Assembly: GCA_903910645.1 (NCBI GenBank)
Contig: CAIWAD010000124.1
Location: forward strand, 16,445 to 80,444
Origin: an uncultured bacterium
GTDB lineage: Bacteria > CAIWAD01
DNA: 64,000 nucleotides
Direction of reading: 5' to 3'
The translations under genes were made by a program, and so were the position numbers. Positions 6,436-33,860 of this stretch are shown one piece after another. The number at the start of each line of letters is the position of its first letter. Within the stretch, counting starts at the first letter, position 1. The notes beneath the pieces were generated by a model. The model was not told the DNA's origin. It was given only the letters and a program-made list of their open reading frames with translations, and ran no database searches.

Positions 6436-6494
6436 GTCTTCGTGCCCGCGCAGGGAGTTGCTTGTCCCTGGAGCGCGGCAATGGAGCCCGCCGT

Positions 6495-8135: not shown

Positions 8136-8161
8136 GGGACACCTCTAGTTTTGTGGGTGAT

Positions 8162-18143: not shown

Positions 18144-19930
18144 AGTCTCCTCAGCACATGGATCCAGGCCTCCGTGTCCTTCCGTCCAAAGTGGTCGGGA
18201 TCGCCCACGAAGCGCAGGTCGGTGGTCAGGGTCAGCTTGTTCAGTTCAAACTCCACGAAGGAGCGCAGCCACATGCGCTCGGACAACTGGTCCCGGCCAG
18301 GCCGCCAGGTGCCGCGCACATTCAGCGAGGCAAGACGCAGCGGCTGCCAGCGCAGATGCATGGACAGGCGGTGTTCCAGGTCCACCAGATCCGCCGCCAC
18401 CAGGTGCTGCAATGCCATGGCGCTCAACTGGGCCTGCAAGCGATGGCCCCGGGCTTTCACCCACACTTCGTTCTTCAGCGTGTTGCGCAAAGTGTCGTCG
18501 CTGTAGACCAAATGGCTGCCCACATGGCGGCGCCACTCCAGACGATGTCCGCCCTGCAGGGTGCCATGGGGATTCAGTGTGCTGTTGAAGCTGGTCAACT
18601 GATCCAGCTCCTTCTGGGAAGGATCGGCCCAGGGGGCCACTGTTTCCCGGTCTTGCATGCGGAAGAGCTCCGCTCGCTGCAGGGCGCGCATGCTGAAGCC
18701 CAGCCAGGGCAGGGGCTCCACCGGCGCGATCATCTCCACCGTGGCCCGTCCCACCAGCCCGCGGCCATATTCGCGCGTCTCCGCCCAGCCGCCGCCCAGG
18801 TCGCCGCGCAGGGACAGATTGCGCTTCAACCACAGGGAGCGATCCATGAACCGGGACCAGGACTGGTGTTGGCCCGCGGCCTCCACCGCCGCCGCCATAC
18901 GCGCCAGGGGCTTCACCTGGAAGACCGCCAGGGCCAGCACATCCCGCCTGTGGACAAGATCCTCGTCCGTGATGCGCACGCGCTCGGTGGAGGCGCGCAG
19001 TTCGGCGCCCACTTCCTCCAAGGGCATCCAGCGCCAGGAGGCGTCGGCGTGACGGCGCAGCACATCCCGCTCCTCCAGCTCGGTGAAATCCGCGCCGGCA
19101 TTGATGGACAGGCGATGCTTCCCCCACAAGGTGGTGCGCAGGCGGTTCTGCCCCAGCACGCGGCGCACGCCCTTGCGCTGCACCAAAGCCGAGTTGCTGT
19201 GGACATCCACGCCACCAGGCAGCTCACCCGCCATGCTCAAGCCCGCAAGGCTGCGCTGAAGATCGAAGTCAAGGCTGTCCGCCAGGCCATACCAGGAGCT
19301 CTCGCCCCAGGCACGCGCCACGAACTGGTGCCAGGCGGGCACGCGGTGCTCCACCTCGGCCCGCATGAATCGATGGTCCGAGATGGCCTCGCCATTGAGC
19401 ACGCGACGGTTGCCCGCCACCACTCCCAGCTCGGTGGTGGGCATGGGACGCAGGGCCAGGCGCCCGCCCACGATCAGGTCGCGCAGGCGCAGGCTGTCGA
19501 TGAGGAAGGCATTGGGACGCCGCCAGCCGTGACGGGCGAAGAGTCCCAGTTCCACTCCGCCCAGGGGCGTCCAACCCAGGTCCGCCTGGAACTCGGGCGT
19601 GTAGATGCGCTGCTCGTAAAGACTGTTCTGTGCCATGGTGGCGCCGGTGCGCAGCAGCCAGTCCAGGCCGCCGGCCTTTTGCACCTGGCCATGGGCACCC
19701 ACCACCACCCGCGCCGTGTGCAGGCGCAGGTCCTCCCCGTAGGCCCCGGCGTAGCTGGAATCACTGACCCAGGTGCTGGTGTGGTCAATCCAGCCGTCCA
19801 GGGTGAAGGATCGCGACGGCTGATAGGCGGGCGCCTGCACCCATGTCGGAACCTGGAACGCGCCCAGCGCCGAACCGACAAGGGAAAGGGCGAAGAGCAA
19901 GGCGCAACGCATGTGGCGGGATCCTCTCAT
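18137..19930 (-). CDS. Predicted outer-membrane beta-barrel (porin-like) protein
   Basis: I chose the ATG at 19930, which forms an ATGA overlap with the upstream stop. Signal peptide MRGSRHMRCALLFALSLVGSALGA. The body is rich in alternating aromatic/polar segments. The C-terminus ...WIHVLRRLW ends in an aromatic residue. Confidence 0.55.
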   Translation of the reverse strand: MRGSRHMRCALLFALSLVGSALGAFQVPTWVQAPAYQPSRSFTLDGWIDHTSTWVSDSSYAGAYGEDLRLHTARVVVGAHGQVQKAGGLDWLLRTGATMAQNSLYEQRIYTPEFQADLGWTPLGGVELGLFARHGWRRPNAFLIDSLRLRDLIVGGRLALRPMPTTELGVVAGNRRVLNGEAISDHRFMRAEVEHRVPAWHQFVARAWGESSWYGLADSLDFDLQRSLAGLSMAGELPGGVDVHSNSALVQRKGVRRVLGQNRLRTTLWGKHRLSINAGADFTELEERDVLRRHADASWRWMPLEEVGAELRASTERVRITDEDLVHRRDVLALAVFQVKPLARMAAAVEAAGQHQSWSRFMDRSLWLKRNLSLRGDLGGGWAETREYGRGLVGRATVEMIAPVEPLPWLGFSMRALQRAELFRMQDRETVAPWADPSQKELDQLTSFNSTLNPHGTLQGGHRLEWRRHVGSHLVYSDDTLRNTLKNEVWVKARGHRLQAQLSAMALQHLVAADLVDLEHRLSMHLRWQPLRLASLNVRGTWRPGRDQLSERMWLRSFVEFELNKLTLTTDLRFVGDPDHFGRKDTEAWIHVLRRLW

Positions 19931-20955
19931 GGCGCCACCTCCCCGGCCGGAAGTTCCGCCGACAGGTAGGGCAGATAGCGATAGGCCTGCACGCGCCGGT
20001 TGTACTGATCCACGATGTAGAGGTGGTCCCCGTGGAAGCAGAGCGCGCTGGGCAGCAGGAACTGGTCGCCCGCCCTGCCCGTGCCGCCGAACCAGTACAA
20101 AAGGGCGCCGCTGCGGCTGAAGACCTGGATGCGGCTGAAGGCGGCATCGCTCACATAAAGATTGCCGTCGCCATCGAAGGCCAGTCCCTTGGGAAACATG
20201 AAACCGCCCGGCGAGTGGTCGTAGACTCCGAAGGAGAACAGGAAGTCGCCCTGGGCGTTGAAGCACTGCACGCGATGGTTCAGGGCGTCCAGCACCCACA
20301 GTTGACCGTCGGGATCGCTGGCCACCGCCACGGGATGCAGGAACTGGCCCTGCGCGCCGCCTTCTCCACCCAGGGTGCGCTGCCAGCGGCCCTGGCCGTC
20401 GAAGCTCTCCACCACATGGCGGCCCGCATCCACGATGTGCAGCAGCGAGCCATCCCAGTGCATCTGTCCCGGCCTCTTCCATCCCTTGGGCGAAGACAGT
20501 TCGCCCTTCACATTGCCGGATCCGGACTCCAACAGGAAGACCTTGCCCCGGCCCGCGTCGCTCATGGCGATGCCGGCGGGAAAGGCGGCCACGCCCGTGG
20601 GCGTGGCGAACAAGGGCGAGGCCATCACTTCGAACGGTCGGGGCGAGCAGCCCTCGGGGCTAAGTCGCAGAAGGCGGGACAAATCGCCGTCGCACACCAG
20701 CACGCGGCCATCTGCATCCACATCCACATCGGTGGGGCGTCCCACGCTGGCGGTGGCGCAGCTGCCCGTCACCAGGCGCAGGGCCTTCATGCCCAGGCCT
20801 CCGTCCAGTCGCACCTGGGAAAGGACATCCCCCTCCTGCAGGTAGAGCGTGTCCGTGCCGGCGGCCACCAGGGGTCGCGGCCCCTGATGCGTCACCGTGG
20901 CGCATCCCGCCGCCAGGAGCAGGGAAAGGAAAAGGACAGGCAGGCGTCGCCTCAT
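19927..20955 (-). CDS. NHL-repeat beta-propeller lipoprotein
   Basis: I chose the ATG at 20955 (ATGA overlap). Lipobox MRRRLPVLFLSLLLAAGC. NHL repeats: GQFLHPVAVASDPDGQLWVLDALNHRVQCF, FMFPKGLAFDGDGNLYVSDAAFSRIQVF and FLLPSALCFHGDHLYIVDQYNRRVQAY. Confidence 0.85.
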   Translation of the reverse strand: MRRRLPVLFLSLLLAAGCATVTHQGPRPLVAAGTDTLYLQEGDVLSQVRLDGGLGMKALRLVTGSCATASVGRPTDVDVDADGRVLVCDGDLSRLLRLSPEGCSPRPFEVMASPLFATPTGVAAFPAGIAMSDAGRGKVFLLESGSGNVKGELSSPKGWKRPGQMHWDGSLLHIVDAGRHVVESFDGQGRWQRTLGGEGGAQGQFLHPVAVASDPDGQLWVLDALNHRVQCFNAQGDFLFSFGVYDHSPGGFMFPKGLAFDGDGNLYVSDAAFSRIQVFSRSGALLYWFGGTGRAGDQFLLPSALCFHGDHLYIVDQYNRRVQAYRYLPYLSAELPAGEVAP

Positions 20956-23165
20956 GGCAGCACCCGCTTCTCGCTTGAGTGGTAATAGCGGTACTTCCAC
21001 AGGGCCTTGTCTCCATGGCAATCGGCGCAGACGGCCTCGCTTGTCTCCTGGCGCAGGAAGTCCGGCGAATGTTCGCCGCCTCCCTCGGGGTGGGCCACAT
21101 GGGGGTTGTGGCAACTGGTGCAGTCCACGCGTCCAATGGCGCCGTCCGTGCGGCCCTCGGCATCGAAGAGCGGCATGGTGCGTCCGTCGGGTCGCGTCTG
21201 GCCCGCAAGGGTCATGTACTTCTGCGGATGGCCCCACGCCTCGGGTACATGGCTGCTGGCGCCCTGCTCGCGGTGGCAGGAGAGGCAGTGCCGGGCGCCC
21301 GGACTCCAGTTCTCCGCCTTGCGCTCCAGGCTTCCATCCGGCCGCACGGCGGCCACGCTGTCCATCTGGGCATTGTCCAGGCTGCTGGCGATGATGGCCC
21401 AATCCGACACGGCGCGGTGGGTGGTGTGGCAGGCCCGGCAGGCGCTCTCGTTGGGCCTGGTCTCGCTCAAGTCGTGGGCGCTTCCCAATACACGGGTCTC
21501 GCCGGAGTGGCAGGCGGAACAGAGTTGCGCGCCGGAGTTGGCCATGCGCAGGAAGGAGCTGTTGTCGTCGCCCTTGGCGTTGGCCTGCCAGGTGGGCGGT
21601 CCGGCGGGATTCCAGTGATGTGGCTCGTGGCAGGACTCGCAGCCCACCAGCAGATCGGCCGGTTCGGGTGTGCCGTCCGCAGGTCTCCAGGTGCGCAGGT
21701 TCTCTGCGCGGTAACCCGGCAGCTTGCTGCCCTTGGGCATGGCCCTGCCCACCGGATGGCCGTGCTGGCCCAGGGTGGTGGCCCCGTGCTTGCCGGTGCC
21801 CTCGTGGCAGCTCAGGCACAGGCTGGTGAACTCGGATGCTTCCGTCCGGGCATGGCCATCGCCAAATGCCTGCTGCTTGTGCGTGTTGTGGCAGGAAGTG
21901 CATTGGCCCCGGCTGGGCTCGCTCCAGTTGAAGGAGTTGTGGTCGGAGACCAGGGTTTGGGCCTGCTCGTTGTGGCAGTTGATGCACAGTCGGCCGTTTT
22001 CGTCATCGGGCAGGCGCAGGAAGCTGCCCAGGGCATCCCCATCCTCATTGCCCGGGCCCGGCTTGTGCCCTGGCATGGCGCTCCAGCGGTGGGGGTCGTG
22101 GCAGGTGGTGCAGCTCATGCCGCCCTCACGCAGGGGAAGGCGCACATTCTGCTCCTTCACCGGACGGTCCAGGGGATGGCCGTGCCCCACCCAGCTGATG
22201 GCGCCCGCCGCGCCCTTTTCCTGGTGGCAACTAAGGCAACGGGCGTCCACGCCATCCTTCACCACATCCGCGCCACGCCCGCCGGGCAGGGGCCAGGCCC
22301 ACATGGCCGGACCATTGCCGCCATGGGTCACATGGCAGGATGCGCAGGCGTCGCTTTGCCCGGCCGTGCGCCTCGTGTTGCCAATAGGCAGATTCCCGTG
22401 TTCTTCCTTCAGGTGGTGGTCGCTTTGCAGCACGGCGAAACTGGGCTCGTGGCAGCTGCGGCACAATTGGGTGCGGTCGGCGCCATCCACCAGCTTGGCC
22501 CGCTTGTCGCTGTGCATGTTGTGGCAACTAAGGCATTCCACCGTGCCTGTGGACACATGGCGTCCGGCCAGCTCCTGTGGCAGTGCCTGCTCCAGCTTGG
22601 CATGCAGGGGATGGTCTGTGTTGCGACGGGCGTGGTCCGCGTGGCACTTCAGGCACAAGGCGGAATTGTCCGCTTCCGCGCGCAAGAAGGGCACATACTG
22701 GAACTCGCGCTCCATGCGGTTCATGTGGGGCGTGTGGCAGCTGCCGCAGTAGATGTCCCCCTTGCGATCCAGGGGAAGGCCGCTGGCGGACACCGCCGCG
22801 CCATTGCTGGGCTTGTGGAAATGCGGATCGTCCTTCTGGAAGAAGCGCCGGCTGTCCCCCACATAACCGTCGTGGCAGGACCAGCACATGTCGCGGCTGG
22901 CCACGCGGGCTTCGCGGCCGTCGATCATCACAGGATGATCCACCGGCGGCAGCAGGACGGCCATCTTCTCATAGCCTTCACCCCACTCCACATGGCAGAT
23001 CACGCACTCCTTGGAGCGGTCCATGTGCAACTGGGCGTCCGCGCGACCGGCTGGGCCCAATCCAAGGGCAAGCCACAGGCCCGCGACTCCGCAGGCCAAG
23101 GTGGCGCGAAGCAGGCGGGCTTTCAGTCTCCGGGAGTCAAGATCCATGGGCGAAAATCCATTCAT
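20952..23165 (-). CDS. Multihaem cytochrome c (18 CxxCH)
   Basis: I chose the ATG at 23165 (MNGFSPMDLDSRRLKARLLRATLACGVAGLWLALGLGPAGRADA). I counted 18 CxxCH motifs from CVICH to CADCH. Confidence 0.9.
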   Translation of the reverse strand: MNGFSPMDLDSRRLKARLLRATLACGVAGLWLALGLGPAGRADAQLHMDRSKECVICHVEWGEGYEKMAVLLPPVDHPVMIDGREARVASRDMCWSCHDGYVGDSRRFFQKDDPHFHKPSNGAAVSASGLPLDRKGDIYCGSCHTPHMNRMEREFQYVPFLRAEADNSALCLKCHADHARRNTDHPLHAKLEQALPQELAGRHVSTGTVECLSCHNMHSDKRAKLVDGADRTQLCRSCHEPSFAVLQSDHHLKEEHGNLPIGNTRRTAGQSDACASCHVTHGGNGPAMWAWPLPGGRGADVVKDGVDARCLSCHQEKGAAGAISWVGHGHPLDRPVKEQNVRLPLREGGMSCTTCHDPHRWSAMPGHKPGPGNEDGDALGSFLRLPDDENGRLCINCHNEQAQTLVSDHNSFNWSEPSRGQCTSCHNTHKQQAFGDGHARTEASEFTSLCLSCHEGTGKHGATTLGQHGHPVGRAMPKGSKLPGYRAENLRTWRPADGTPEPADLLVGCESCHEPHHWNPAGPPTWQANAKGDDNSSFLRMANSGAQLCSACHSGETRVLGSAHDLSETRPNESACRACHTTHRAVSDWAIIASSLDNAQMDSVAAVRPDGSLERKAENWSPGARHCLSCHREQGASSHVPEAWGHPQKYMTLAGQTRPDGRTMPLFDAEGRTDGAIGRVDCTSCHNPHVAHPEGGGEHSPDFLRQETSEAVCADCHGDKALWKYRYYHSSEKRVLP

Positions 23166-23188: not shown

Positions 23189-24133
23189 TCAGGGAATGTC
23201 GAAGCGGATGATGCGGCTGGCGCGGCTGTCCACCACCCACCACGAAGCTCCGCAACACACAATGGCCGTGGGACCCTGGAGTTGCCAGGGCTTGCCCTTC
23301 AGCATCAACTGGCCCTGGCTCTGGGCGTACTCGTCATAGGCGTGCACCATGCCCAGGTAGCTGTCGGTGATGAGCAGGCCCTTGCCGTTCCAGCAGGCGC
23401 AGGCGCCCTTGGGACGATAGAGACGCTCGCCATCGGTGCCAAAAGAGCCCACCATGCGGTCAAAGTTCCCCAAGCGCGTGTAGGCCTGGATGCGGCCGCC
23501 CAGCACATCAATCACCATGAAGCCGTTCATGTGGCGGGACAGGATGCCCGGAAACTTGAACTCCTCCACGCGATCGCCCGGCTTGCCGTCGGGCAGGCTC
23601 ATGCCCGCCATGCGACGCATGGGGCGGATCTCGTCGGCGCCCCGGCCAATCACTTTCAACAGGGCGCCGTCGTAGCTGATCATCAGCAGGCGATGGTTGT
23701 CGTTGTCGGAGACCACCAGCTTGTCCTCCAGCGCCAGCACATCCACCGGATCGCAATTGGCCGGAAGCTTGATGGTCTGCACGGGACGCCCGTCCAGGGT
23801 GGTGACGAAAATGGAGCCGGCATCCGGATCGCTCACATAAAGGCGGTCCTTCCAGATATCGTTGCCCACCGGGTTCACAAAACCATCGTGGCGGATTTCA
23901 CGCATCAGGGCGCCCTGGGGGCTGATGACCACCACGCGCTTGTTCAGGCCGTCCACCACATAGGCGTTGCCGCGCTCGTCGGCCGCCAGGTCCGTGGGAT
24001 AAGTGGTGCCGGCGGCCACATCCTCCAGAATGCGCACATCCACCGCGCCGGCCACGCCGGCCAGCATCAGAAGCAGGATCGGGAGGAGCAGGGCTCTCCG
24101 ATCAGTACGCGGGCGGCAGGAAGAAGACTTCAT
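23189..24133 (-). CDS. NHL-repeat beta-propeller protein, secreted
   Basis: Signal peptide ...RRALLLPILLLMLAGVAGA. Repeats: PTDLAADERGNAYVVDGLNKRVVVI, NPVGNDIWKDRLYVSDPDAGSIFV and VLALEDKLVVSDNDNHRLLMI. Confidence 0.8.
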   Translation of the reverse strand: MKSSSCRPRTDRRALLLPILLLMLAGVAGAVDVRILEDVAAGTTYPTDLAADERGNAYVVDGLNKRVVVISPQGALMREIRHDGFVNPVGNDIWKDRLYVSDPDAGSIFVTTLDGRPVQTIKLPANCDPVDVLALEDKLVVSDNDNHRLLMISYDGALLKVIGRGADEIRPMRRMAGMSLPDGKPGDRVEEFKFPGILSRHMNGFMVIDVLGGRIQAYTRLGNFDRMVGSFGTDGERLYRPKGACACWNGKGLLITDSYLGMVHAYDEYAQSQGQLMLKGKPWQLQGPTAIVCCGASWWVVDSRASRIIRFDIP

Positions 24134-26681
24134 TGTCGGTCACACTCGCGGTTATGGCGCTGCTGCGCAGTTGGCGAATCCGCTCCTCGTCGAAGCCCAC
24201 GCCGTGGAAGTCCACCAGCCCACCCTCGGGCACATGGCATTCTCCACAGGTGGCGCCCGTGCCTTCGCCGGACTGGATGCGATCGTGGAAGCGGTCCTTG
24301 GTGTCCTTCATGCGTGCCTGGGTCATGGGCGCGGAATTCTGCCGGTACTCCTCGGCACGAGGGCTGTCCAGATCGGCATAAAGCGGCTTTCCGCCCACCT
24401 TCAAGCCCAGCAGGCTGGTGTAATTGTCCAGCCCGGTGAAGGGCGGTGTGCCGGTCAACTTATAGGGAGCCTTGGGCTCGCCCTGGGGCTGGCGGCGGAG
24501 ATCCAGCCAGCTCCACTCCGCGCCCTTGCGGTCGGCCTCCTTGGCGTGGCAGGTCTCGCAGGTCATGAAGCGGCTGTGCAGGTTCAAGTAGGCCCGCGTC
24601 TTGCGGTCGTTCTGGTGCGGCAACATGGCGTGGCAGAGCAGGCACTCGCTTTGGCGCAGGGTGGAATCCGCCGTCACCACCGGCTCGGCATCGTGGAAGC
24701 GTCTGTGGCGCCAATCCACATCCTCGTTGGCGACACGCAAGGGATAACTGGGATCCGCCAGCGCCGCCTCCTTGTCCGCCAGCGGGCGCTTGCACCACTG
24801 GGCCACCACATCGGCGGCGGCCGGAGCCTTGTCCACTCCCAGGTAGAGGCGGAAGGACCACACCATGGCGGCGCAGGTGACAATGGTGAGAAACAGAAAG
24901 GACCATCCCAGGGTGCGGGCCAGGGTGTCGCGCGTGCTGCGGCGACGCTCCCGGGCCCCGGTGACCTCGTTCACCAGGATGGGGCCGAACTTCTCCACGG
25001 CATCCGGCTCCATGAGCGCGCCGTGCTCCTCCTCCATGTCCTCTTCGCCCATTTTGCCGTCAATCCACACCTCGCTCATGGGCCAGCGGCTGGGCTTCCA
25101 GTGCACGTTCCAGAAATGCCACACCACGATGGCCGCCACGGCAAGGATGGCCTCCAGCGAATGCACCAGGCGGGCCAGGTCCACGATGAACTTGCTGCCC
25201 AGGTGCTCCATCCACAGGATGATGCCCGTTCCTGTCATCACCACGGAGCCCCAGGCGAAGGCCCAGTACTCCATTTTCTCGCCATAGTTGAAGAAGCCGA
25301 AGGCCGGGCGATCCTTCCGCAGGCCCAACATGAAGCTGATGTTGTGGCTGATGAGCTTCATGTCCGATGGGCCGGGGAGCATGGCCCACATCAGGGCCCT
25401 GCCGCGCTTGCTGAACACCGCATAGCCCAGGTGGTAGAAACTCACCAGCGTGAGCAGGATGGCCGCCACGCGATGGCTCCAGTCACGCACGGGCATGAAG
25501 TATTCCCACCGCACAAGGGTGCCGAAGCGCTCCGGCGGAATCCACAGCATGACGCCTGTCAGAGCCAGCAGGGTGAAGCTGGTGAACATGACCACATGAC
25601 TGATGCGCTCCGCTGGGCTCAGGCGGCGGAAGACACGACGCACGGCGCCTTCGGGCTTTTGGTGGTGGGCCGCTGCGTGCGCCTTTCGATGGCGACGCCA
25701 GGCGATGTAGTCCAGCAGATTGTGGCCCAGCATGCCGCCAATGGTGAGCAGGATGATCCAGATGTAAATGCGCTTCACCCACACCAGGGCCTGCACCTTG
25801 GTGCCCTGGTAAAGGTTGTGCATGCTGCCGGCGGTGGCGAAAGACACCGTGGCGCCATCGTGGCAACCGGTTGTGCTGCAGGTTTTCTGCAGGTTCGCCG
25901 GGTTGATCATGGACTTGGAATCCTGATGGCTCAGGATGTTGTGGTGGCCATGGCAGTCGGCGCACACGGGGCTGCGCTTGTCCCCGAAGTTGAAGCCGCG
26001 GCCATGGAAGGACTCCAGGAAGCTGGAGACCATGGTGCCATCGATGAGCAAGGTTTCAAGGCTGTCGGACACCAGCTCGTTGTCCGTGTGGCAGCGGATG
26101 CAGGCCTCGAAGTTCTGCTGATGCCTCCAGTACTCGTCCTCGCTGATGTGCAGGGCCAGGTGCTTGAAGTCCTCGTCCAGGGCGTTGTAGTTCTCGTGGC
26201 AGGTGAGGCACTTGGCCTTGGCGCGCTCCATGTCCTCCGGAAGCTTCTGCCAGTAGACGCTGTTGAAGTGGCAGTCCTTGCACACCGGCTTGCGGTGGTC
26301 GTAGGGGCCCTTCCCCGTCTTGCCATGCACGCTGGCCGCCAGGTCCCTGGCCATTTTCTGATGGGAGTAATCGGCGCCGGTGTAGGGATCGATTACATGG
26401 CAGGCCACGCTGCAGTCCACCTTTTTCACCGGCGCGCGGTGGGGCACCTGATCGATGTCCGTGTGGCACTGGCGGCAGGCGAAGCGGCCATGGATGCTGC
26501 TTTTATGGACGCCTTCGTCGATGGTGAAATTGCGCACGCCCGCGCTGTCGCTGACGGCCATCCAGGGCTTGCCATGGCAGAAGAGGCAATTCTCGGGATC
26601 GAAGGTGCTGTCCTGGGCCACGGCCAGTGTGGCCAGCAGCAGTCCCGCCAGGGCAAGGATCTTCCGCAGGGGATCCATCAT
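24102..26681 (-). CDS. Fused inner-membrane redox protein: N-terminal multihaem c domain, FdnI/PhsC-like cytochrome b domain, TM segment and C-terminal trihaem c domain
   Basis: I chose the ATG at 26681 (MMDPLRKILALAGLLLATLAVA; ATGA overlap). N-domain: CLFCH, CRQCH, CSVACH, CKDCH, CLTCH, CIRCH, CADCH, CSTTGCH. b-domain: RISHVVMFTSFTLLALTG...WSHRVAAILL...EYWAFAWGSVVMTGTG...HSLEAILAVAAIVVWHFWNVH. C-domain: CLLCH, CETCH, CGECH. Confidence 0.85.
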   Translation of the reverse strand: MMDPLRKILALAGLLLATLAVAQDSTFDPENCLFCHGKPWMAVSDSAGVRNFTIDEGVHKSSIHGRFACRQCHTDIDQVPHRAPVKKVDCSVACHVIDPYTGADYSHQKMARDLAASVHGKTGKGPYDHRKPVCKDCHFNSVYWQKLPEDMERAKAKCLTCHENYNALDEDFKHLALHISEDEYWRHQQNFEACIRCHTDNELVSDSLETLLIDGTMVSSFLESFHGRGFNFGDKRSPVCADCHGHHNILSHQDSKSMINPANLQKTCSTTGCHDGATVSFATAGSMHNLYQGTKVQALVWVKRIYIWIILLTIGGMLGHNLLDYIAWRRHRKAHAAAHHQKPEGAVRRVFRRLSPAERISHVVMFTSFTLLALTGVMLWIPPERFGTLVRWEYFMPVRDWSHRVAAILLTLVSFYHLGYAVFSKRGRALMWAMLPGPSDMKLISHNISFMLGLRKDRPAFGFFNYGEKMEYWAFAWGSVVMTGTGIILWMEHLGSKFIVDLARLVHSLEAILAVAAIVVWHFWNVHWKPSRWPMSEVWIDGKMGEEDMEEEHGALMEPDAVEKFGPILVNEVTGARERRRSTRDTLARTLGWSFLFLTIVTCAAMVWSFRLYLGVDKAPAAADVVAQWCKRPLADKEAALADPSYPLRVANEDVDWRHRRFHDAEPVVTADSTLRQSECLLCHAMLPHQNDRKTRAYLNLHSRFMTCETCHAKEADRKGAEWSWLDLRRQPQGEPKAPYKLTGTPPFTGLDNYTSLLGLKVGGKPLYADLDSPRAEEYRQNSAPMTQARMKDTKDRFHDRIQSGEGTGATCGECHVPEGGLVDFHGVGFDEERIRQLRSSAITASVTDNEVFFLPPAY

Positions 26682-27481
26682 TCCTCCAGCATGGGGAAGT
26701 GGAAGGGTTCGTAATTCTCCACCATGCCCACGGCGGCGGAGTGCGTCAATTCGTGGATGCGCGGTTGGCTGAAGCCCAGCGCGACCCATGGGAAAGCGGC
26801 TTCCGGCGTGTGGCAGGCCAGGCAGGCGCTGGGCGTTTTGCCCACATGCTCCTCGGCGAACTCGCGGAACTGGGCCTCGTCGATCTCCAGCCCGCTCAGC
26901 GCGTCGGCGCGGAACTGCTTGTAGCGCTGGTCATCGTAGGGCGTGAACAGCAGGGTGTTGCCGCCTGCCGCCGTGAGCACAGGGACGATGCGGCTGATGA
27001 AGTTGTGCCGCCCGGACAGGACGCCATCCTTCCCCCGCTCAAGTCCATAGGGGCCCAGGGCCGTGACCGTGTTGTCCGTGTCGAAGGAGGTCCACTCCAG
27101 CGAGGTGCGCGCGCGCATGGTGTCGTCCAGATGGCAGGCCAGACAGCTCATGAAATGGCTGTGCTGGTTGTAGAAGGCACGGCGCTTGGGATCCTTGGTG
27201 TGCGGGAAAAGCGGGTGGCATGTCAGGCAGGCCTCCTGCTGGCCCAGGGGCAGCAGGCTGTGCACCTCGATGTTGTGGAAGTGCTGCTCCTGGTTGCGGT
27301 AGTCCTCGAACCAGGTCTCCAGCTGCTCCACATGGTCCGTGAAGTGGCGCCTTCCCTGCTTTTCCTCCTCGTGGGCCTTGTGGGGACGGTTGGTCATCCA
27401 CACCAGCCAGGCGGACACAGCGCTGCCGATGACCAGGGCCGTAAGGCCGTAGGCCACCCGGCTGAAGGTTCTCATGCTCAT
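26678..27481 (-). CDS. Membrane-anchored trihaem cytochrome c, homologous to the C-terminal domain of the 24102-26681 product
   Basis: N-terminal TM segment VAYGLTALVIGSAVSAWLVW. Motifs CLTCHPLFPHTKD, CLACHLDD and CLACHTPE align with CLLCHAMLPHQND, CETCHAKE and CGECHVPE. Confidence 0.85.
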   Translation of the reverse strand: MSMRTFSRVAYGLTALVIGSAVSAWLVWMTNRPHKAHEEEKQGRRHFTDHVEQLETWFEDYRNQEQHFHNIEVHSLLPLGQQEACLTCHPLFPHTKDPKRRAFYNQHSHFMSCLACHLDDTMRARTSLEWTSFDTDNTVTALGPYGLERGKDGVLSGRHNFISRIVPVLTAAGGNTLLFTPYDDQRYKQFRADALSGLEIDEAQFREFAEEHVGKTPSACLACHTPEAAFPWVALGFSQPRIHELTHSAAVGMVENYEPFHFPMLEE

Positions 27482-28263
27482 GCGTCACCATCCCGGCCGG
27501 CGGCGCCGTCCTGCTTGTCGTCGTCGTCGTGGCGTCGCACACGGCCACGCTTCAACTGCTCAAGGATGTCCTCCAGCTCGCGGGGATGCTCGTGCATCAT
27601 CTCCTCTTCGCTAAGGGTGCCGCGGTACCACACCTTGTTGGCGGGCCACACGCGGGGATTGAAGTGCACGTTGTAGAAGTGCCAGATGACAATGGCCAGG
27701 AAGGCCAGCAGGGCCTCGTCACTGTGGGCCACATAGGCGATCTGGATGACCTCTGAGGGGAACCACTGGCCGCTGGCCTCCGGATACCACAGCAACAGGC
27801 CGCTGCCCGCCATGATGAACATGCCCCAGAACACCGCCCAGTAGTCGAATTTTTCGATGTAGGAGAAGCGGTGGAAGCGGGGACGCTCCTCACTCAGGAA
27901 AAGGAAGTAGCGGATGTTCGTGGCAATGTCCCGGGCATCCTGCAGGTTCGGCAGCAGATGCATGCCGGAAAGGGGCGTGCGGTTGCGCACGATGTTGAAG
28001 AACACATAGAACACATGGACGGCGAAATCGGCGATCATCACCACCGCGGCCACGCGATGAATGGTGCGCACCGTGTCGATGCCCCCGAAAAGGTTGATGG
28101 AGTGCGACCAGAAGGCGGTGTCCGGGAACTTGATGGGGAAGCCCGTCACCACCAGGACAATGAATGGCACAAACATGAAGATGTGCTGCAGGCGCTGGCT
28201 GAGCGAGAAACGCACATACTCCCGCCTTCCCCCCACCACGCGAATGCGATCACTCACTCTCAT
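27478..28263 (-). CDS. Cytochrome b subunit (FdnI / Ni-Fe hydrogenase b-type / PhsC-like)
   Basis: I chose the ATG at 28263 (MRVSDRIRVV...). RLQHIFMFVPFIVLVVTG, TIHRVAAVVMIADFAVHVFYV, DYWAVFWGMFIMAGSG and HSDEALLAFLAIVIWHFYNVHFNP. The ATGA overlap is with the downstream gene. Confidence 0.85.
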   Translation of the reverse strand: MRVSDRIRVVGGRREYVRFSLSQRLQHIFMFVPFIVLVVTGFPIKFPDTAFWSHSINLFGGIDTVRTIHRVAAVVMIADFAVHVFYVFFNIVRNRTPLSGMHLLPNLQDARDIATNIRYFLFLSEERPRFHRFSYIEKFDYWAVFWGMFIMAGSGLLLWYPEASGQWFPSEVIQIAYVAHSDEALLAFLAIVIWHFYNVHFNPRVWPANKVWYRGTLSEEEMMHEHPRELEDILEQLKRGRVRRHDDDDKQDGAAGRDGDA

Positions 28264-29296
28264 GGCGGCCTCCTCCCGAGAAGCGCCCGTGGACCCAGCG
28301 GCCGAAGTCCAGCAGGATGTGGCTGAAGAGCAGGGCCATGGTGATGGCCGTGAGCAGGATGAAGCCCCAGGTGACCACATAGACCACCGGATTGCTCTCC
28401 ATGGTGGGCTTGCTGTGGATGGCCGAGCGCGCGAACTCAATGCTGGGGCTGATGTGGCAGCCCGTGGTGCCGCAGGTCTGGCGGATGTTCGCCGTGGACA
28501 GCGTGGAGGCCGGGTCGTCCTGGGGCAGCACAAGATGACTGGTGTGGCAATCCGCGCAGTTGGCCACGCCATCCAGGCCGCGCCGCATGGCCTTGCCATG
28601 GAAGTGGTGCTGGAAGCCTTCCACCTGCGTGCTGCTCACATTCACGCTCTCCATCAGCGTGGCGTCGCCGTGACAGCTTGAGCACAAGCGCACGATGTCC
28701 AGCGAGTTCTCCGCGCTGCGGTGGGAAGTGTGGCGGTCAATGTGCTGGATGACGCCTTCCAGGGACTTGCCGTCGTGGCAGTTGGCGCAGTGCTTGGCCT
28801 GCTCCTGCACGCGCTGGTCCGGGGCCGCCATGCGATGGCTGCCGTGGCAGTACTTGCAGCCGGGCTTGGCGGCGTTGGTTTCGGGATCGTCCTTGGGATT
28901 CTGCCCGTGCACGCTCATGGCGTGGGCTTCCACTTCGCCGCGGTGGGAGAACACCGTCAGCTCGAAGGGGCGGTTCACATGGCAGGTCTTGCCGCAGTCC
29001 ACCTTCTGCACCACCTGTGGATGCGGAAACGCATCGATGTCCGCGTGGCAGTCCCGGCAGCCGATGCCCTTGTGGGAGCTGTGCATCACGGTCTCGGCGC
29101 TCACCTCGTAGAGGCGGAAACGGCCCTTGTCGTCGTGGCGCGACAACAGGGGCAGCCCATGGCAGAGTTCGCAGTTCTCCGAATCCGCCAGACGCGGATT
29201 GGCCAGCGAAGACGCCAGCGGCAGCAAGGCGAGAAGGGCCGGGAGCAGGCCCCTGGCCAGAGAGGCCAAGGCGCCCCTACAGGTCGTGACAGGCAT
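28250..29296 (-). CDS. Multihaem cytochrome c with a C-terminal membrane anchor (6 CxxCH, one CX3CH, one CX4CH)
   Basis: Signal peptide ...LLPALLALLPLASSLA. Motifs: CELCH, CRDCH, CGKTCH, CKYCH, CANCH, CSSCH, CADCH, CGTTGCH. C-terminal TM segment VVYVVTWGFILLTAITMALLF. Confidence 0.9.
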   Translation of the reverse strand: MPVTTCRGALASLARGLLPALLALLPLASSLANPRLADSENCELCHGLPLLSRHDDKGRFRLYEVSAETVMHSSHKGIGCRDCHADIDAFPHPQVVQKVDCGKTCHVNRPFELTVFSHRGEVEAHAMSVHGQNPKDDPETNAAKPGCKYCHGSHRMAAPDQRVQEQAKHCANCHDGKSLEGVIQHIDRHTSHRSAENSLDIVRLCSSCHGDATLMESVNVSSTQVEGFQHHFHGKAMRRGLDGVANCADCHTSHLVLPQDDPASTLSTANIRQTCGTTGCHISPSIEFARSAIHSKPTMESNPVVYVVTWGFILLTAITMALLFSHILLDFGRWVHGRFSGGGRHESE

Positions 29297-30215
29297 AGCA
29301 GATCCGCTCTTTTGCCGCCCGCAGGAGCTTGGAGGCGGGGGCGCCTCCGCCCGAGCAGGCGGGATTTGGGCTGTGACAGGTGGCGCAGGCCACCGTTCCC
29401 CCGGGTCCCAGGGGCAGGATCACGCCGCTCTGGGCCTGGAACCGTTCCAGCGCGGCGGCGGTGTTCATCTTCAATCTGTTGTGCAGCACGGAGCGTCCCA
29501 CATGCTCCCGCTCATGCTTCACATCCTTGTGGCACTTCAGGCACAGTTCGCCCTGGGGCAGCTGAAGGCCCTTGCCGGGCTGGGCCGCATCGCCGCCCTC
29601 CGCGCTGTGGCAGTACCAGCAGGCCTTGTTGTCCTCGGACTGGCCGTGGGGATAGGTCTGCTTGTAGAGTTCGCGCGTGTGGCACTGGTAGCAGAAGTCC
29701 GTCTCCCGGGGCCATGGTCCGCCACGCAGCATGCTGCGGTTCTCCCGCGCCACGCGATAGCTGGTGGTCTCGTCGCAGTTGATGGCGTGGCAGGTCAGGC
29801 AAGTGCCACGGCCTTCCTTCAGGCGCGCATTGGCCGGACTGGGCGCCTTGGAGCTTGCCCCGGAGAAATCCGTGGGATGGATTTCACGCAAATGGGCCTG
29901 GGGGTCGTGGCATTCCACACAAGCGCCGTCCCGCCAGTTGGCCGCCGCCGGAGTCTGCCCGGGCGTGTGGCATTGGTCGCAACGGTTGGGCCGGCCGTGG
30001 GGGTTGTCCTTGCCAGGCAGAGTCAGGTGCTGCTTCTGGGCGGGCCTGGGTGCCGGGGCCGCCGCACGCGCGGGCACGGGTGGCTTGCACAAGCCACAGG
30101 ACGGTTTGGCGCAGTCATCATGGGTGGCCGGGGCAGGAGCCGCTCCCAGCTGGGCACCAAGCAGCAGCGCCAGCAAACCGACAACCCAGGAACCTGACCA
30201 CGAGCGTTGAACCAT
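29277..30215 (-). CDS. Periplasmic octahaem cytochrome c
   Basis: I chose the ATG at 30215 (MVQRSWSGSWVVGLLALLLGAQLGAA). Motifs: CDQCH, CVECH, CLTCH, CYQCH, CWYCH, CLKCH, CATCH, CYACH. Confidence 0.9.
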   Translation of the reverse strand: MVQRSWSGSWVVGLLALLLGAQLGAAPAPATHDDCAKPSCGLCKPPVPARAAAPAPRPAQKQHLTLPGKDNPHGRPNRCDQCHTPGQTPAAANWRDGACVECHDPQAHLREIHPTDFSGASSKAPSPANARLKEGRGTCLTCHAINCDETTSYRVARENRSMLRGGPWPRETDFCYQCHTRELYKQTYPHGQSEDNKACWYCHSAEGGDAAQPGKGLQLPQGELCLKCHKDVKHEREHVGRSVLHNRLKMNTAAALERFQAQSGVILPLGPGGTVACATCHSPNPACSGGGAPASKLLRAAKERICYACHDL

Positions 30216-30222: not shown

Positions 30223-31410
30223 TCACTCCAGCGGATAGGATAGGCCTTGCTCCTCCCAGCGATTGGGAAGGGGCAGGTCGTCATGGATGAGCGCATTGGC
30301 GCCGAAGCGCAGGCTGAGCAGGTCGTAGCCCAGCACATTGAGGTAGAAACCCACGAAGGCGCTGGTCTGGCCCGTCCAGCAGTAGAGGACATTGGTGTTG
30401 GCCGGATGCAGGGCGCTCAGGTCCTGATTGGTGGTCAGGCTGCCCGGGCTAAGCTGATAGGCGCCCTGGACATGGCCGTACGTGAAGTAGTCGTCCTGCA
30501 GCCAGTAGTTGTGGATGATGAAGGAGCCGGGGTTGTCCATGACCTCGTAGGCGTTCACAGCGTTGGCCGTGAAGCCCTCCGCCAACACCGCCGACACCCG
30601 CGCCTGCAGAATGGCCTGCCCCGAGGCCAGTCCCGTGGACAGCTCGGGCCAGTCGAAGGTGGGAAGGGCGGGACTGTTGCCGTAGCTCATCACCGATTCG
30701 TATGCGTTGCTGATGCCTGCATTCCAGGGCCCTGCCAGCAGGTCGTTCCACCCCGCCATGCCCCATTGCAGACTGAAGGCGTCGTGGCCCAACATGCGCA
30801 ATGCCATGGTGGCGAAGGCCGCCACCTGTCCCGTGTCACAAGCCAGCAGCACCGGCAGGCCGCCACTGTTCTGCCCTTCCACCGTGGACACCAGCGTGGT
30901 AAGGCTGGCATTGCGAGCGCCGGGAATGTGCCCTGCCAGGAAGGCCTGGCTGCTGCGGAGATCCACCACGAAGTACTGGCCCAGATTGGCGTTCACCGTG
31001 GTGGCAGGCAGGATCCAGTTGGTGGCCCAGGTGGCGAACTGGGCGTCCGTGATGGCCGCCAGGCGGTTGAATTCCCCGCGCACGGAGATGGAGGTGGAAC
31101 GGCTGGCGCTGTCCACGCCATCGCTGACCTCCACCAGGATCGTCACCTGCCCGGAAGCCGGTGCCTGCCACTGGATGTTGGCCGTGCTGCCAATGGCCAG
31201 ACCATCAACTGTCCAGGCATAGGTCAAGGCGTCGCCATCGGCGTCGCTGGCCGTGCAGGCAAGAGTGATGGTCTCGCCGGGATCGGGGGTGGGATCGCTG
31301 GCGGTGACACCGCTGATGACAGGCGGGCTGTTGCCCTCCTCAGAAGAGGAACAGCCACCCAAAATGAGGGCGGCCATCAGGCCCGTGACGAAAATGCGTG
31401 CGCGACCCAT
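30223..31410 (-). CDS. Lipoprotein with a PKD/Ig-like domain and tandem rhodanese domains
   Basis: Lipobox LMAALILGGCSSSEEG. PKD-like segment ITLACTASDADGDALTYAWTV. Rhodanese motifs: LAGHIPGARNA, the loop CDTGQV, YGHVQGAYQL and the loop CWTGQTS. Confidence 0.8.
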   Translation of the reverse strand: MGRARIFVTGLMAALILGGCSSSEEGNSPPVISGVTASDPTPDPGETITLACTASDADGDALTYAWTVDGLAIGSTANIQWQAPASGQVTILVEVSDGVDSASRSTSISVRGEFNRLAAITDAQFATWATNWILPATTVNANLGQYFVVDLRSSQAFLAGHIPGARNASLTTLVSTVEGQNSGGLPVLLACDTGQVAAFATMALRMLGHDAFSLQWGMAGWNDLLAGPWNAGISNAYESVMSYGNSPALPTFDWPELSTGLASGQAILQARVSAVLAEGFTANAVNAYEVMDNPGSFIIHNYWLQDDYFTYGHVQGAYQLSPGSLTTNQDLSALHPANTNVLYCWTGQTSAFVGFYLNVLGYDLLSLRFGANALIHDDLPLPNRWEEQGLSYPLE

Positions 31411-31471: not shown

Positions 31472-32431
31472 TTAGTTGGTTTCCAGCTCGTAGTTGAAGC
31501 CGGTGGCGGCCCAGGCGTTGGCCGGCATGGTGTCGTGGTACAGCGCGTTGGCGCCGTACTTCAGGCTAAGCACATCATAGCCCAGGGCGTTCAGGTAGAA
31601 ACCCACCAGGGCGCTGGTCTGGCCCGTGTAGCAGTAGAGCACCTGCTGGTCGGCGGGATCCAGGGCGTCCAGGTCCGTGGTGGTGGTCAGGTTGCCCGGA
31701 GTCAGCTGGTAGGCGCCGTCGATGTGGCCAACGGCGTAGTGGGCGGCGCTCCAGTAGTTGAAGATCTGGTAGTCACCCGGAGTGGCCATTACGGTGGCTG
31801 CGGTGACGATGTTGGGCGTCAGGCCTTCAGCCAGGATGGCGTTCACGCGGGCCTCCAGGATGGCCTGGCCATCGGTGAGGCCGGTGTTCAGTGCAGGGAA
31901 CTCGAAGGTGCCCAGGGCGGGGCTGGCGCTGGTGACCATGTTGCCCACATAGGCGTTGCTGATGCCCGTGGCCCAGCTGGTGTTCAAGGCGTCATTCCAA
32001 CCGCCCATGCCCCACTTCACGGAGAAGGCGTCCGTCCAGCCCAGCATGCGCAGAGCCATGGTGGCGAAGGCCGAAGTCTGGCCCGTGTAGCACACCACCG
32101 CCACCGGCAGGTCGCTGGTGTTGTTGGTGGCGATGTTGTCGGCCATGGTGGTCAGCGTGGCGTTGTGGGCGCCGGGGATGTGGCCGGCAGCGTAGTCCGT
32201 GGCGCTGCGCAGGTCCACCACATAAAGGTTGGCCAGGTTGGTGTGGACATAGTCCGCGCCCTGCACCCAGCCCGTGGTCCAGCCGGCGAAGCCCGTGTCC
32301 GTGAGCTCGCTCATGAGGGCGAACTCGTCCACCGGTGTGGTATTGTCGTCGTCGTCATCCTCGGAGCAGCCGGTGAAGACGGAAAGGGTGAGCGCCACGG
32401 ACAAAGCCAAGGCGAGCTTCTGGAACTTCAT
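31472..32431 (-). CDS. Lipoprotein with tandem rhodanese domains, both with a CYTGQTS active-site loop
   Basis: I chose the ATG at 32431, preceded by a GGAG. Lipobox LTLSVFTGCSEDDDDDNTT. Motifs: AAGHIPGAHNA, VVCYTGQTSAFATMALRMLGW and LYCYTGQTSALVGFYLNALGY. Confidence 0.85.
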   Translation of the reverse strand: MKFQKLALALSVALTLSVFTGCSEDDDDDNTTPVDEFALMSELTDTGFAGWTTGWVQGADYVHTNLANLYVVDLRSATDYAAGHIPGAHNATLTTMADNIATNNTSDLPVAVVCYTGQTSAFATMALRMLGWTDAFSVKWGMGGWNDALNTSWATGISNAYVGNMVTSASPALGTFEFPALNTGLTDGQAILEARVNAILAEGLTPNIVTAATVMATPGDYQIFNYWSAAHYAVGHIDGAYQLTPGNLTTTTDLDALDPADQQVLYCYTGQTSALVGFYLNALGYDVLSLKYGANALYHDTMPANAWAATGFNYELETN

Positions 32432-32531: not shown

Positions 32532-33860
32532 TCAATGTCTGTTCCAATACCTCGTGATGCTGTCGTCCACTGCAGTGGCCCGGTTGGCCCGCACATACTC
32601 GTCGGGGTCCTCCAGACCCGTGACGGACGACTTCAAACTGTCCAGATGGCTCAGCCACAGGAAGCGCCTGGCGTTGGCCTCCTCGTGCGGGCCCTGGACA
32701 TGGCAGCTCATCCAGCAGTCTCCCATGCTGTAGGCAGGGTTGGACAGCGCCACGGCCGTCTGGGGCGTGAAGCGCTGGATGTTGTGGGGACTGGAGTACT
32801 CCCAGGTGGGGAAGGAGGACCAGTTCTGCAGACTGGGCCAGCCCCACTCGCGAAAGCCATCCTTGATCACCGGGATGTGGCGCACGGTGACCCACTCCTC
32901 ATGCTCCACCGGATGGGTGGAAATTGCGCCTGTGTTGCGACCAATGCGGAAGTCAGTGTACTCAGAATACCCCTCGGGGTCTCCACTGTTCCACACGCCG
33001 CCGGAGTGGCAATTCAGGCAGTTGGTGTAGGGCTGGCTGTGGCACACGGTGCAGGACAGGCCCTCTTCCATGGAGCCTTCCCCCGGCCAGTGATAGGCGT
33101 GGAAAAGGTTGTCCTCCGCCGCCAGGCTGTGGCAGTTGGTGCAGCGCGGCATGCCTTCCACTTCATAACGGCTGGTGTAGTCCGTGCGGCCGTCCCCGTG
33201 CAGATTCTCCTGGTGGCAGAAGAAACAGTCGAAGCCCAGCTCATTGTGCACATCGGGGCGATTGCCCTCGTGGTGGCCGTTGTAGTCGTTGCCCACGCGG
33301 CTGCCATGGCAGGCGGTGCAGTTGTTTTCAATGTCAGGCGTGCGCTTGAAGCGATGGCTGTCCAGCAGGCCGCCCTTCACACTGGTGGGACGGGACACAT
33401 GGCATTGGCCGCAGGTGGCGTGGCAGCTGGAACATTCCCGCGCATGGCCTTCCTTGAGCAGCTCGGGACAATCCTCCCAGCTTTCGTAGCCGGCGCGCAG
33501 GGCGATCTTCGCCTTTTCGCCCCACAGCTGGCTGTGCATGGACGTGGCATGCAGGTCCACGATCTGGGCATGGCAACCCGTGCCGTTGCAATTCAGCTCC
33601 GGCTGGGTGCTGGGATCCCGCGTGATGCCCTTCACCGTGGGCTTTTCACGAATGACGCGCCCGTTGCTGGTGTAGCGCACCTCGAACTGGTGGGCCGCCG
33701 CCATGGCCACCCACAAATCATCCCGCGAGCCACTGGCCGCCACCACCTGATCCACGCCGCCGTGGCAGGTGACACATCCCACAGCCGCATGGTTGGGGTC
33801 AACTTCGGCGTAGCTGTCGGCGTCGATGAACACTTTTGCATAAGGCTCCAACGGAGCCAC
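32532..33860 (-). CDS. Multihaem cytochrome c body (8 CxxCH plus CX4CH and CX3CH variants) with no signal peptide of its own
   Basis: Motifs: CVTCH, CNGTGCH, CSSCH, CGQCH, CTACH, CFFCH, CTNCH, CTVCH, CLNCH, CWMSCH. The N-terminus (GTG start) V/MAPLEPYAKVFIDADSYAEVD is acidic and not signal-like. The gene is in the same frame as 33870-34094. Confidence 0.8.
   Translation of the reverse strand: MAPLEPYAKVFIDADSYAEVDPNHAAVGCVTCHGGVDQVVAASGSRDDLWVAMAAAHQFEVRYTSNGRVIREKPTVKGITRDPSTQPELNCNGTGCHAQIVDLHATSMHSQLWGEKAKIALRAGYESWEDCPELLKEGHARECSSCHATCGQCHVSRPTSVKGGLLDSHRFKRTPDIENNCTACHGSRVGNDYNGHHEGNRPDVHNELGFDCFFCHQENLHGDGRTDYTSRYEVEGMPRCTNCHSLAAEDNLFHAYHWPGEGSMEEGLSCTVCHSQPYTNCLNCHSGGVWNSGDPEGYSEYTDFRIGRNTGAISTHPVEHEEWVTVRHIPVIKDGFREWGWPSLQNWSSFPTWEYSSPHNIQRFTPQTAVALSNPAYSMGDCWMSCHVQGPHEEANARRFLWLSHLDSLKSSVTGLEDPDEYVRANRATAVDDSITRYWNRH

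Follow-up and report, generated by a model that had tools for sequence, protein, structure and literature searches.

Why should a bacterial genome carry what looks like the same inner-membrane cytochrome twice, side by side, once as three genes and once as one? The question is raised by a stretch of 64,000 nucleotides of contig CAIWAD010000124.1 (hereafter the window) from an uncultured bacterium, probably a Delongbacteria-like member of the FCB (Fibrobacteres-Chlorobi-Bacteroidetes) group. On its minus strand, three overlapping genes (A, B and C, together the trio) are followed by one long gene (the fused gene) with the same three parts in the same order: a multihaem cytochrome c, a cytochrome b and a trihaem cytochrome c (c-b-c). 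Our answer, to which we assign a probability of about 0.7, is that the trio and the fused gene represent one modular inner-membrane bc cytochrome in two paralogous versions that separated long ago, encoded in one coupled operon within a gene cluster that resembles the porin-cytochrome (Pcc) clusters for extracellular electron transfer (EET).

One module, encoded twice

The first-pass annotation of the window had proposed that a single module occurs here twice in tandem, split into three overlapping open reading frames (ORFs) and fused into one, and the four ORFs bear this out. Subunit A (28250-29296, on the minus strand like the three genes that follow; 348 aa) contains six CxxCH haem-attachment motifs together with CGKTCH (Cx3CH) and CGTTGCH (Cx4CH). 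Subunit B (27478-28263, 261 aa) is a cytochrome b of the FdnI/HydC type with four transmembrane (TM) helices and zero haem-c motifs. Subunit C (26678-27481, 267 aa) begins with a signal-anchor TM helix, followed by a predicted periplasmic trihaem domain with three CxxCH and, besides these, three conserved distal histidines. The fused gene (24102-26681, 859 aa) encodes six CxxCH, CSVACH and CSTTGCH, then the b domain, then three CxxCH, so that the haem-motif counts of the two copies (six CxxCH, one Cx3CH and one Cx4CH in the first part, three CxxCH in the last) are equal, as had been claimed.

Residues 1-295 of the fused protein (25794-26678, minus strand) comprise the signal peptide and the 8-haem c domain and are homologous to A. 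Residues 296-565 (24984-25793, minus) comprise the anchor helix TM0 with H319, an Arg/Lys-rich cytoplasmic linker and the FdnI-type b domain with its four TM helices, and in residues 566-858 (24105-24983, minus) a second cytoplasmic linker (RERRRSTRD) is followed by TM5 and the homolog of C, a periplasmic trihaem c domain. In relatives and in a database copy (P0001, 858 aa) the fused gene starts at the second ATG, at 26678; both candidate starts overlap or abut the stop codon of C. Pfam family PF01292 was found in B (E = 2.6e-16) and in the fused protein (E = 7e-13, residues 355-522), and the haem-c parts of both copies have merely generic c3/c7-type Pfam matches. The region has a G+C content of 65%, with nearly every gene on the minus strand.

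The claim that the split set is colinear with the fused product was upheld by BLASTP. The fused protein matched A with 32% identity over 307 aa (E = 4e-43, with A pairing with fused residues 28-328), B with 37% over 231 aa (E = 3e-40) and C with 28% over 210 aa (E = 2e-19), and the three alignments are colinear. A global alignment of the fused protein with the concatenated products A, B and C gave 32.1% identity over 823 aligned pairs. This likeness is not limited to the haem motifs: with all CxnCH motifs masked, A still matched the fused protein at E = 4e-13 and C at E = 8e-8, and against shuffles with Cys and His positions held fixed the z-scores were 19 (A) and 21 (C). In the alignment, the boundaries between genes A and B and between B and C lie within the two predicted cytoplasmic linkers, after TM0 and before TM5, respectively. 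As far as sequence can tell, the trio and the fused gene are thus true paralogs of the whole three-part module.

No third copy of the module was found within the window beyond the trio and the fused gene. One candidate, a protein with ten haem motifs encoded at 32532-33860, was rejected as a third copy of the 8-haem domain, as it has no similarity by tblastn despite containing both Cx3CH and Cx4CH.

Age of the duplication

Orthologs in genomes with both modules are 62-80% identical (C in one relative, L009, is at 49%), versus about 32% between the two copies in the window. Compared with the window, the identities in L009 are 62% for A, 70% for B, 49% for C and 62% for the fused protein. As the divergence of the trio tracks that of the fused gene, the pair was inherited together, and a relative with the fused gene only (L006) lost the trio secondarily.

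Trees of the b domain agree with an old separation. They were built by neighbour-joining from 147 b domains, with 100 bootstraps on 59 taxa, and are distance-based and midpoint-rooted. The deepest split separates B from the b domain of the fused protein (91/100 bootstraps). B groups with stand-alone b subunits (91/100), and the c-b-c proteins group with c-b proteins from Marinimicrobia (100/100); this second group joins a large clade of c-b proteins in just 56/100 replicates, and monophyly of the c-b-c proteins relative to the Marinimicrobia forms with c-b and a separate c was seen in 36/100. Mean b-domain identities point the same way: B of the trios is 51% identical to stand-alone b subunits that have other c partners, versus 34% to fused b domains, and fused b domains are 37% identical to the CbcL-like c-b clade. 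We also considered the 8-haem domain as a closer bond between A and the N-terminal domain of the fused protein and rejected it, as A is about equally near to other c subunits of the family (30% to L019_c2, 26% to P0020).

The tree, the b-domain identities and the equal nearness of A to other c subunits together identify the trio and the fused module, at the level of sequence, as ancient paralogs. The pair has long been co-inherited and was lost piecemeal in some lineages. The first-pass annotation had instead described a gene fission or fusion event caught beside its paralog, and this did not hold, given an identity of about 32% between the copies and b domains at opposite sides of the deepest split.

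Gene junctions and selection

Trio and fused gene were found together, with the same gene boundaries, on independent contigs whose fused proteins are 77%, 65% and 62% identical to that of the window; relatives with both modules were drawn from JGI, Logan, ENA and GTDB assemblies. The window itself matches a Logan contig (SRR15198247), and a second sample (SRR15198253) carries the same four genes. Genes A and B overlap by 14 nt, and a Shine-Dalgarno sequence (GGGAGGAGG) precedes the ATG of B. At the next two junctions, B/C and C/fused, stop and start codons overlap in ATGA (4 nt each). The four genes A, B, C and fused, in that order, thus look translationally coupled. The 3' end of an upstream gene for an 8-haem cytochrome (29277-30215) in turn overlaps the start of A by 20 nt.

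Ratios of nonsynonymous to synonymous substitution rates (dN/dS), calculated against the 77% relative (L003), were lowest for A (0.16), followed by B (0.21), the fused gene (0.22) and C (0.27), next to 0.15-0.35 for other genes of the cluster. Both forms of the module are under purifying selection. With junctions shared by independent assemblies and dN/dS of 0.16-0.27, the worry that the split genes might be frameshifts, or the fused gene a misassembly, was not borne out.

Membrane topology and haem ligands

From hydropathy and charge, the predicted order in the fused protein is signal peptide (ending AVA-QD), 8-haem c domain (all eight motifs within residues 30-275), TM0, Arg/Lys-rich linker, four b helices, an acidic and then Arg-rich linker, TM5 and trihaem c domain. 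The signal peptide, the six TM helices and the positive-inside loops imply that both c domains must face the periplasm; with six TM helices between two periplasmic haem-attachment domains, the predicted topology is self-consistent. For the trio, A is predicted to be exported by a Sec signal peptide, with its 8-haem c domain in the periplasm and a TM anchor at the C-terminus (311-329) that contains a conserved histidine (LFSHILLDFGRW), and B to have four TM helices with both termini cytoplasmic. The predicted topologies of the three proteins are complementary, A being secreted and C-terminally anchored, and C signal-anchored.

The b-domain histidines are H27, H69, H83, H180 and H195 in B, and H361, H402, H416, H506 and H521 in the fused protein; the first of each set lies in TM1, the next two form an HX13H motif in TM2 and the last two an HX14H motif in TM4. 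The two pairs are present in 147/147 sequences and the TM1 histidine (H27 of B) in 146/147, across all groups examined. Across an alignment of 92 sequences, conservation of H319, H361, H402/H416 and H506/H521 is complete or at least 90%. The anchor-helix histidine, at the cytoplasmic end of TM0, is found in at least 90% of the fusions and in five of the five trio-type A proteins examined, and is absent from the Zixibacteria relatives L019_c1 and L019_c2. Both copies in the window retain every haem-c motif and every conserved b-domain histidine.

The TM4 histidine pair of B aligns to His155 and His169 of FdnI, and the structural evidence leads to the same fold. An AlphaFold2 model of the fused chain had a mean predicted local distance difference test (pLDDT) score of 74.8, with the membrane part mostly above 90. 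Its top Foldseek match was FdnI (1kqf_C; TM-score 0.74, root-mean-square deviation 3.4 over 211 columns), followed by HyaC (4gd3). A sequence search of the PDB returned only weak matches to FdnI and no close relative of solved structure.

We also considered C as a quinol dehydrogenase of the NapC/NirT/NrfH type. It fails the family test (TIGR03153, 19.9 bits versus a cut-off of 134.2) and has three motifs, the first 58 residues past the TM helix, where the NapC/NrfH type has four CxxCH, the first close to the TM helix. NrfH/NapC ancestry of C is a weak lead.

Separate genes and fusions in the wider family

Full-length c-b-c fusions form about 17 clusters at 90% identity, none of them below 46% identity to the query. 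Next in similarity to the fused protein come hundreds of c-b proteins of 650-750 aa that cover about 61% of the query; those sampled have 6-19 CxxCH, mostly 11-13, and no Cx3CH. Three groups alone showed the formula of six CxxCH, one Cx3CH and one Cx4CH, namely the c-b-c clade, the c-b proteins of Marinimicrobia and the trio-type A proteins. B has more than 1000 homologs. The 120 best of these, 192-426 aa long (mostly 229-350), comprise stand-alone b subunits only; they come from Marinimicrobia, Delongbacteria, Latescibacteria, Zixibacteria, Gemmatimonadota, Firmicutes and further groups.

The trihaem domain typified by C is rare, with 204 representatives among 1.84 billion. It stands alone in proteins of about 260 aa, forms the C-terminal half of b-c fusions, which are about 500-580 aa long and have PF01292 in their N-terminal part, and closes longer proteins (about 800-1015 aa) that are for the most part c-b-c fusions. 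The third cytochrome found after b in two other loci (L018 and L019) is canonical NapC/NrfH-like and not homologous to C. The first of these, from Calderihabitans maritimus, has the order c295, b250, a 37-aa TM peptide and a NapC-like c361. The second, at 5020-11005 of a Zixibacteria contig (Ga0104751_1000123), has two tandem split modules, c411, b227, c347, b319 and c682, the last NapC/NrfH-like.

Every cut or join of the two linkers thus exists in nature, and it is chiefly for this reason that we regard a single complex of A, B and C, with the architecture of the fused chain, as very probable; the first-pass annotation had proposed that the three form one complex. The fused counterpart, the intermediates (c-b with separate c, b-c, c-b-c), the coupled translation, the complementary topologies and the anchor histidine of A all favour it.

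Many of the b subunits and c-b fusions are labelled formate dehydrogenase subunit gamma at source. Against TIGR01583, for which the NCBIfam equivalog cut-off is 115.85, the fused protein scored 50 bits and B 42 bits, and the homologs so labelled likewise score far below it. No molybdopterin, Fe-S or NiFe subunit genes were found in the cluster, and no FdnGH neighbours in the homolog loci examined. With scores that far below the cut-off and neither FdnGH nor hydrogenase partner genes, such names are misleading, and the label looks like a systematic misannotation.

Comparison with known systems

The first 565 or so residues of the fused protein have the architecture of CbcL (Geobacter sulfurreducens), MtrH (Rhodoferax) and MtoC (Gallionella, Dechloromonas), namely a c domain, a TM helix and a HydC/FdnI-like dihaem b domain, with candidate b-haem histidines likewise in the anchor helix, TM1, TM2 and the last helix. 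Genes for these proteins lie in EET clusters, and coupling to the quinone pool has been proposed for them (10.1101/2021.04.15.440034; PMC6295460). Members are known from 15 phyla and from both reducers and oxidisers of metals, and no feature tells the two apart (PMC6295460). CbcL carries nine CxxCH (PMC6295460), versus eight motifs, including Cx3CH and Cx4CH, in the c domain of the fused protein, the two being likened here by architecture. Relative to the CbcL class, the fused protein adds a sixth TM helix and a C-terminal periplasmic trihaem domain, and its second copy is unfused.

CbcL has been described as a fused c-b menaquinol oxidase and CbcBA as a split form, in which the anchor helix of CbcA was proposed to provide a b-haem histidine; fusions of cbcB and cbcA occur in Chloroflexi (10.1101/2021.04.15.440034). 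CbcBA (Cbc5 of Geobacter sulfurreducens) has a four-TM b gene beside a C-terminally anchored multihaem c, as do A and B, and the anchor histidine of A is a candidate for the same role. The trio differs by the N-terminally anchored trihaem C and by eight rather than seven motifs in A; the likeness is one of published description. CbcB and CbcL are without sequence homology to each other (10.1101/2021.04.15.440034), so B cannot be assumed to be an ortholog of CbcB.

A closer motif formula is found in Aquificae, where c-b proteins associated with pcc genes have six CX2CH and two CX3-5CH motifs (PMC4245776). Two of these, Dester_0351 (Desulfurobacterium) and Theam_0871 (Thermovibrio), are assigned to the cytoplasmic membrane, resemble the formate dehydrogenase b subunit in their b part and stand beside porin-cytochrome genes (PMC4245776). 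Formula and context match the N-terminal part of the fused protein and the Marinimicrobia c-b genes, which suggests homology on the published description; they are reported as c-b only, with no mention of a C-terminal trihaem domain or a split paralog.

FdnI/FdnH and HyaC/HyaA share with both modules the b fold, the TM4 histidine pair and an anchored periplasmic wire subunit before b. In contrast to these enzymes, the wire of the present modules contains c-type haems instead of Fe-S clusters, no catalytic molybdopterin or NiFe subunit is nearby, TM2 has an additional invariant histidine (HX13H), and there is one more cytochrome domain on the periplasmic side. Cytbc of the Gallionellaceae in the KS culture, a b561 protein with a C-terminal c domain from an EET operon (PMC5566968), is comparable by description to the b-c fusions that contain the C-type domain; its c domain is dihaem and the C-type domain trihaem. 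As to the Pcc clusters of the OmaB/OmbB/OmcB type, the window has an 8-haem cytochrome (312 aa), a cytochrome with 12 motifs (549 aa) and a porin candidate of 591 aa, a likeness of gene content.

Gene cluster and its variable slot

The conserved order of the cluster is a cytochrome with about ten haem motifs, one or more rhodanese lipoproteins, the 8-haem cytochrome, the inner-membrane module or modules, an NHL-repeat protein, an 18-haem cytochrome, another NHL-repeat protein, a protein of about 590 aa and a 12-haem cytochrome. In the window, where all of these genes are on the minus strand, it begins with the ten-motif cytochrome (32532-33860, 442 aa), which has eight CxxCH, one Cx3CH and one Cx4CH and no confident Pfam family, and which is preceded by a conserved ORF of 74 aa (33870-34094, minus). 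Two lipoproteins with a rhodanese domain come next (31472-32431 and 30223-31410). Five relatives (the L003, L006, L020, P0008 and P0014 loci) have a single rhodanese protein of 606-687 aa, and both lipoproteins align to the same C-terminal segment of it, so the two genes of the window appear to be a tandem duplicate in place of a single long gene. Rhodanese genes are retained in the clusters of nearly all relatives.

The 8-haem soluble cytochrome (29277-30215, 312 aa) has a CxxCH at its extreme C-terminus (CYACHDL, then the stop codon), and the start of A lies inside these last codons. In relatives without the trio, the 8-haem gene abuts the fused gene directly. It accompanies the fused or c-b module; it is absent from a trio-only locus of Marinimicrobia (L017) and was not found upstream of the fused gene in L008.

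Directly downstream of the fused gene, an NHL-repeat protein (23189-24067) is followed by the 18-haem cytochrome (20952-23165), a second NHL-repeat protein (19927-20955), the 591-aa protein (18137-19912) and the 12-haem cytochrome (16488-18137, 549 aa). The 591-aa protein has a signal peptide, the C-terminal residues RRLW and no Pfam hit, and may be an outer-membrane barrel; it and both NHL-repeat proteins are kept in the cluster of every relative. Just downstream of the 12-haem gene lies a gene for a protein of 137 aa (16006-16419, minus) with a TM segment and one CxxCH, about 53% identical in L003 and L006.

The slot for the inner-membrane module is variable. It contains both trio and fused gene in the window, L003-L005, L009, L020 (a contig labelled Delongbacteria_CAIWAD01) and the P0008 locus. 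Only the fused gene is present, abutting the 8-haem gene, in L006 (79% identical), L007 (50%) and the P0014 locus, and also in L008, which has a reduced cluster without the upstream cytochromes. Two Marinimicrobia loci (L010 and L011) have a c-b gene with a separate c, and a third (L017) has the trio only, without the 8-haem gene. We found no relevant literature on such a cluster in Marinimicrobia or Delongbacteria, or on rhodanese together with multihaem cytochromes, and a preprint on EET in peat contained nothing pertinent.

Elsewhere in the window, among unrelated neighbours, an ORF at 38208-41510 encodes an IcmF-like fusion of 1100 aa (B12-binding domain, MeaB GTPase and methylmalonyl-CoA mutase domain), and 47665-54704 and 54637-56493 contain genes for a RecB-like protein (UvrD helicase with PD-(D/E)XK nuclease), RecC and a SulP/STAS anion transporter. 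An ORF of 1238 aa (8162-11878, minus) has a coding-like G+C content at third codon positions and no Pfam hit at E <= 1e-5.

Proposed function and alternative explanations

In each module, the 8-haem c domain would be held at the membrane by TM0, next to a four-helix dihaem cytochrome b, with TM5 carrying the periplasmic trihaem domain. A would play the part of FdnH or of the hydrogenase small subunit, a periplasmic wire with a C-terminal anchor, with haems replacing the Fe-S clusters. Each module would link the menaquinone pool, via the two b haems, to the periplasmic c haems, in either direction, and electrons could pass on to the 8-haem soluble cytochrome and then to the components at the outer membrane (18-haem, porin-like and 12-haem). 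As alternative points of entry or exit, the two modules would have non-identical roles, for which potential, partner and direction are candidates; tuning of potential as in ImcH, CbcL and CbcBA is a reasonable analogy.

Several points weigh against this interpretation. Close relatives lack the trio (L006 at 79% and L007 at 50% identity), so the second module is dispensable in some lineages. The rhodanese lipoproteins hint at a sulfur species, rather than a metal, as substrate. Coupling to quinone is argued from homology to FdnI/HyaC and analogy to CbcL, and the outer-membrane conduit from a 591-aa protein without a family hit. A model of C alone (AlphaFold2, from an alignment of 15 sequences) was set aside, since with a pLDDT of 48 it could not sustain a fold search.

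The substrate is where the best-surviving alternative enters, namely that the bc modules link the quinone pool to sulfur transformations, in either direction, and not to respiration of metals or electrodes. The conservation of rhodanese lipoproteins in the clusters of nearly all relatives speaks for it, as does the name of the closest genome locus (L006), SulCav, possibly from a sulfidic cave. We nevertheless consider it unlikely, as there was no match above cut-off to MccA, octahaem tetrathionate reductase or Sox families, and as the gene content fits the published Pcc pattern of 8-haem, porin-like and 12-haem components (PMC4245776). It also concerns the substrate and not the nature of the two modules.

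Alternatively, both modules may do the same job, with their co-occurrence a transient state on the way to loss and no specialisation between them. Repeated loss of one or the other, as in the lineages with a single module listed above and most cleanly in L006, indicates that neither is indispensable. On the other side, both are kept in genomes down to 62% identity of the fused protein, with similar orthologous divergence, and both have dN/dS of about 0.2 with haem motifs and histidine ligands intact. Such long co-retention under purifying selection counts against simple redundancy, which we regard as rather improbable.

It is also conceivable that the fused chain and A, B and C co-assemble into one mixed hetero-oligomeric supercomplex. 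Coupling of the four genes in the order A, B, C and fused would suit such an assembly, and b subunits of the FdnI type do oligomerise in formate dehydrogenase-N (1KQF). Yet each module is found alone in otherwise identical clusters and the data indicate no interface, which makes a mixed assembly very unlikely.

Even less can be said for a recent tandem duplication in this lineage, followed by fission or fusion of one copy and still in progress. In its favour are the adjacency and colinearity of the two sets, their identical haem-motif counts, and the rare C-type domain, which was seen, in the loci examined, only with the trio-type or the fused and c-b-plus-c lineage. Against it stand the 28-37% identity between copies versus 62-80% between orthologs, the deep split of the b domains with B nearer to other stand-alone b subunits, an A no nearer to the fused N-terminal domain than to the c subunits of other family members, and the Marinimicrobia that hold either module type singly. 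We regard a duplication of this kind as highly improbable and retain ancient paralogy.

Finally, that the trio is one frameshifted gene, or the fused gene a misassembly or read-through, can be practically dismissed: apart from a superficial resemblance of the overlapping ORF ends (14, 4 and 4 nt) to frameshifts nothing favours it, and it is contradicted by identical boundaries in independent assemblies from different samples and lineages (L002-L005, L009, L017, L020 and the P0008 locus), the stand-alone homologs of B, the strong Shine-Dalgarno sequence at its start, the range of full-length fused proteins down to 46% identity, and purifying selection on all four genes.

Significance

No new principle is involved. 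Fused (CbcL) and split (CbcBA) forms, cbcB-cbcA fusions, pcc-associated c-b proteins with six plus two motifs and parallel inner-membrane cytochromes are already published. In the literature we found no description of the TM-anchored trihaem part, of the full set of split and fused permutations or of side-by-side retention of both forms in Delongbacteria-like genomes.

One may go further and tentatively regard the 8-haem, b and trihaem arrangement (c8-b-c3) as a distinct and undescribed subclass of bc quinone-pool oxidoreductases, whose split and fused forms Delongbacteria-like bacteria keep deliberately in one operon as non-equivalent gates; we hold this to be possible, with the odds against it. 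If true, a dihaem cytochrome b would have a periplasmic haem wire on either side, each with an anchor of its own, and the gates would differ in redox-potential window, direction (quinol oxidation or quinone reduction) or periplasmic partner. The locus would then be a compact natural analogue of the potential switching by ImcH, CbcL and CbcBA in Geobacter, and a ready pair for probing how covalent linkage affects electron gating.

The consequences for annotation are broader. More than 1000 stand-alone "formate dehydrogenase gamma" b subunits adjoin multihaem cytochromes, and the fused paralog and the intermediate fusions provide Rosetta-stone evidence that such subunits serve CbcL-like modules between the quinone pool and the periplasm, and not formate dehydrogenases. 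Together, the above observations would extend the theme known from CbcL and CbcBA, of several inner-membrane gates for one EET pathway, to an uncultured FCB lineage and to Marinimicrobia, and would add to it a third part, the TM-anchored trihaem domain.

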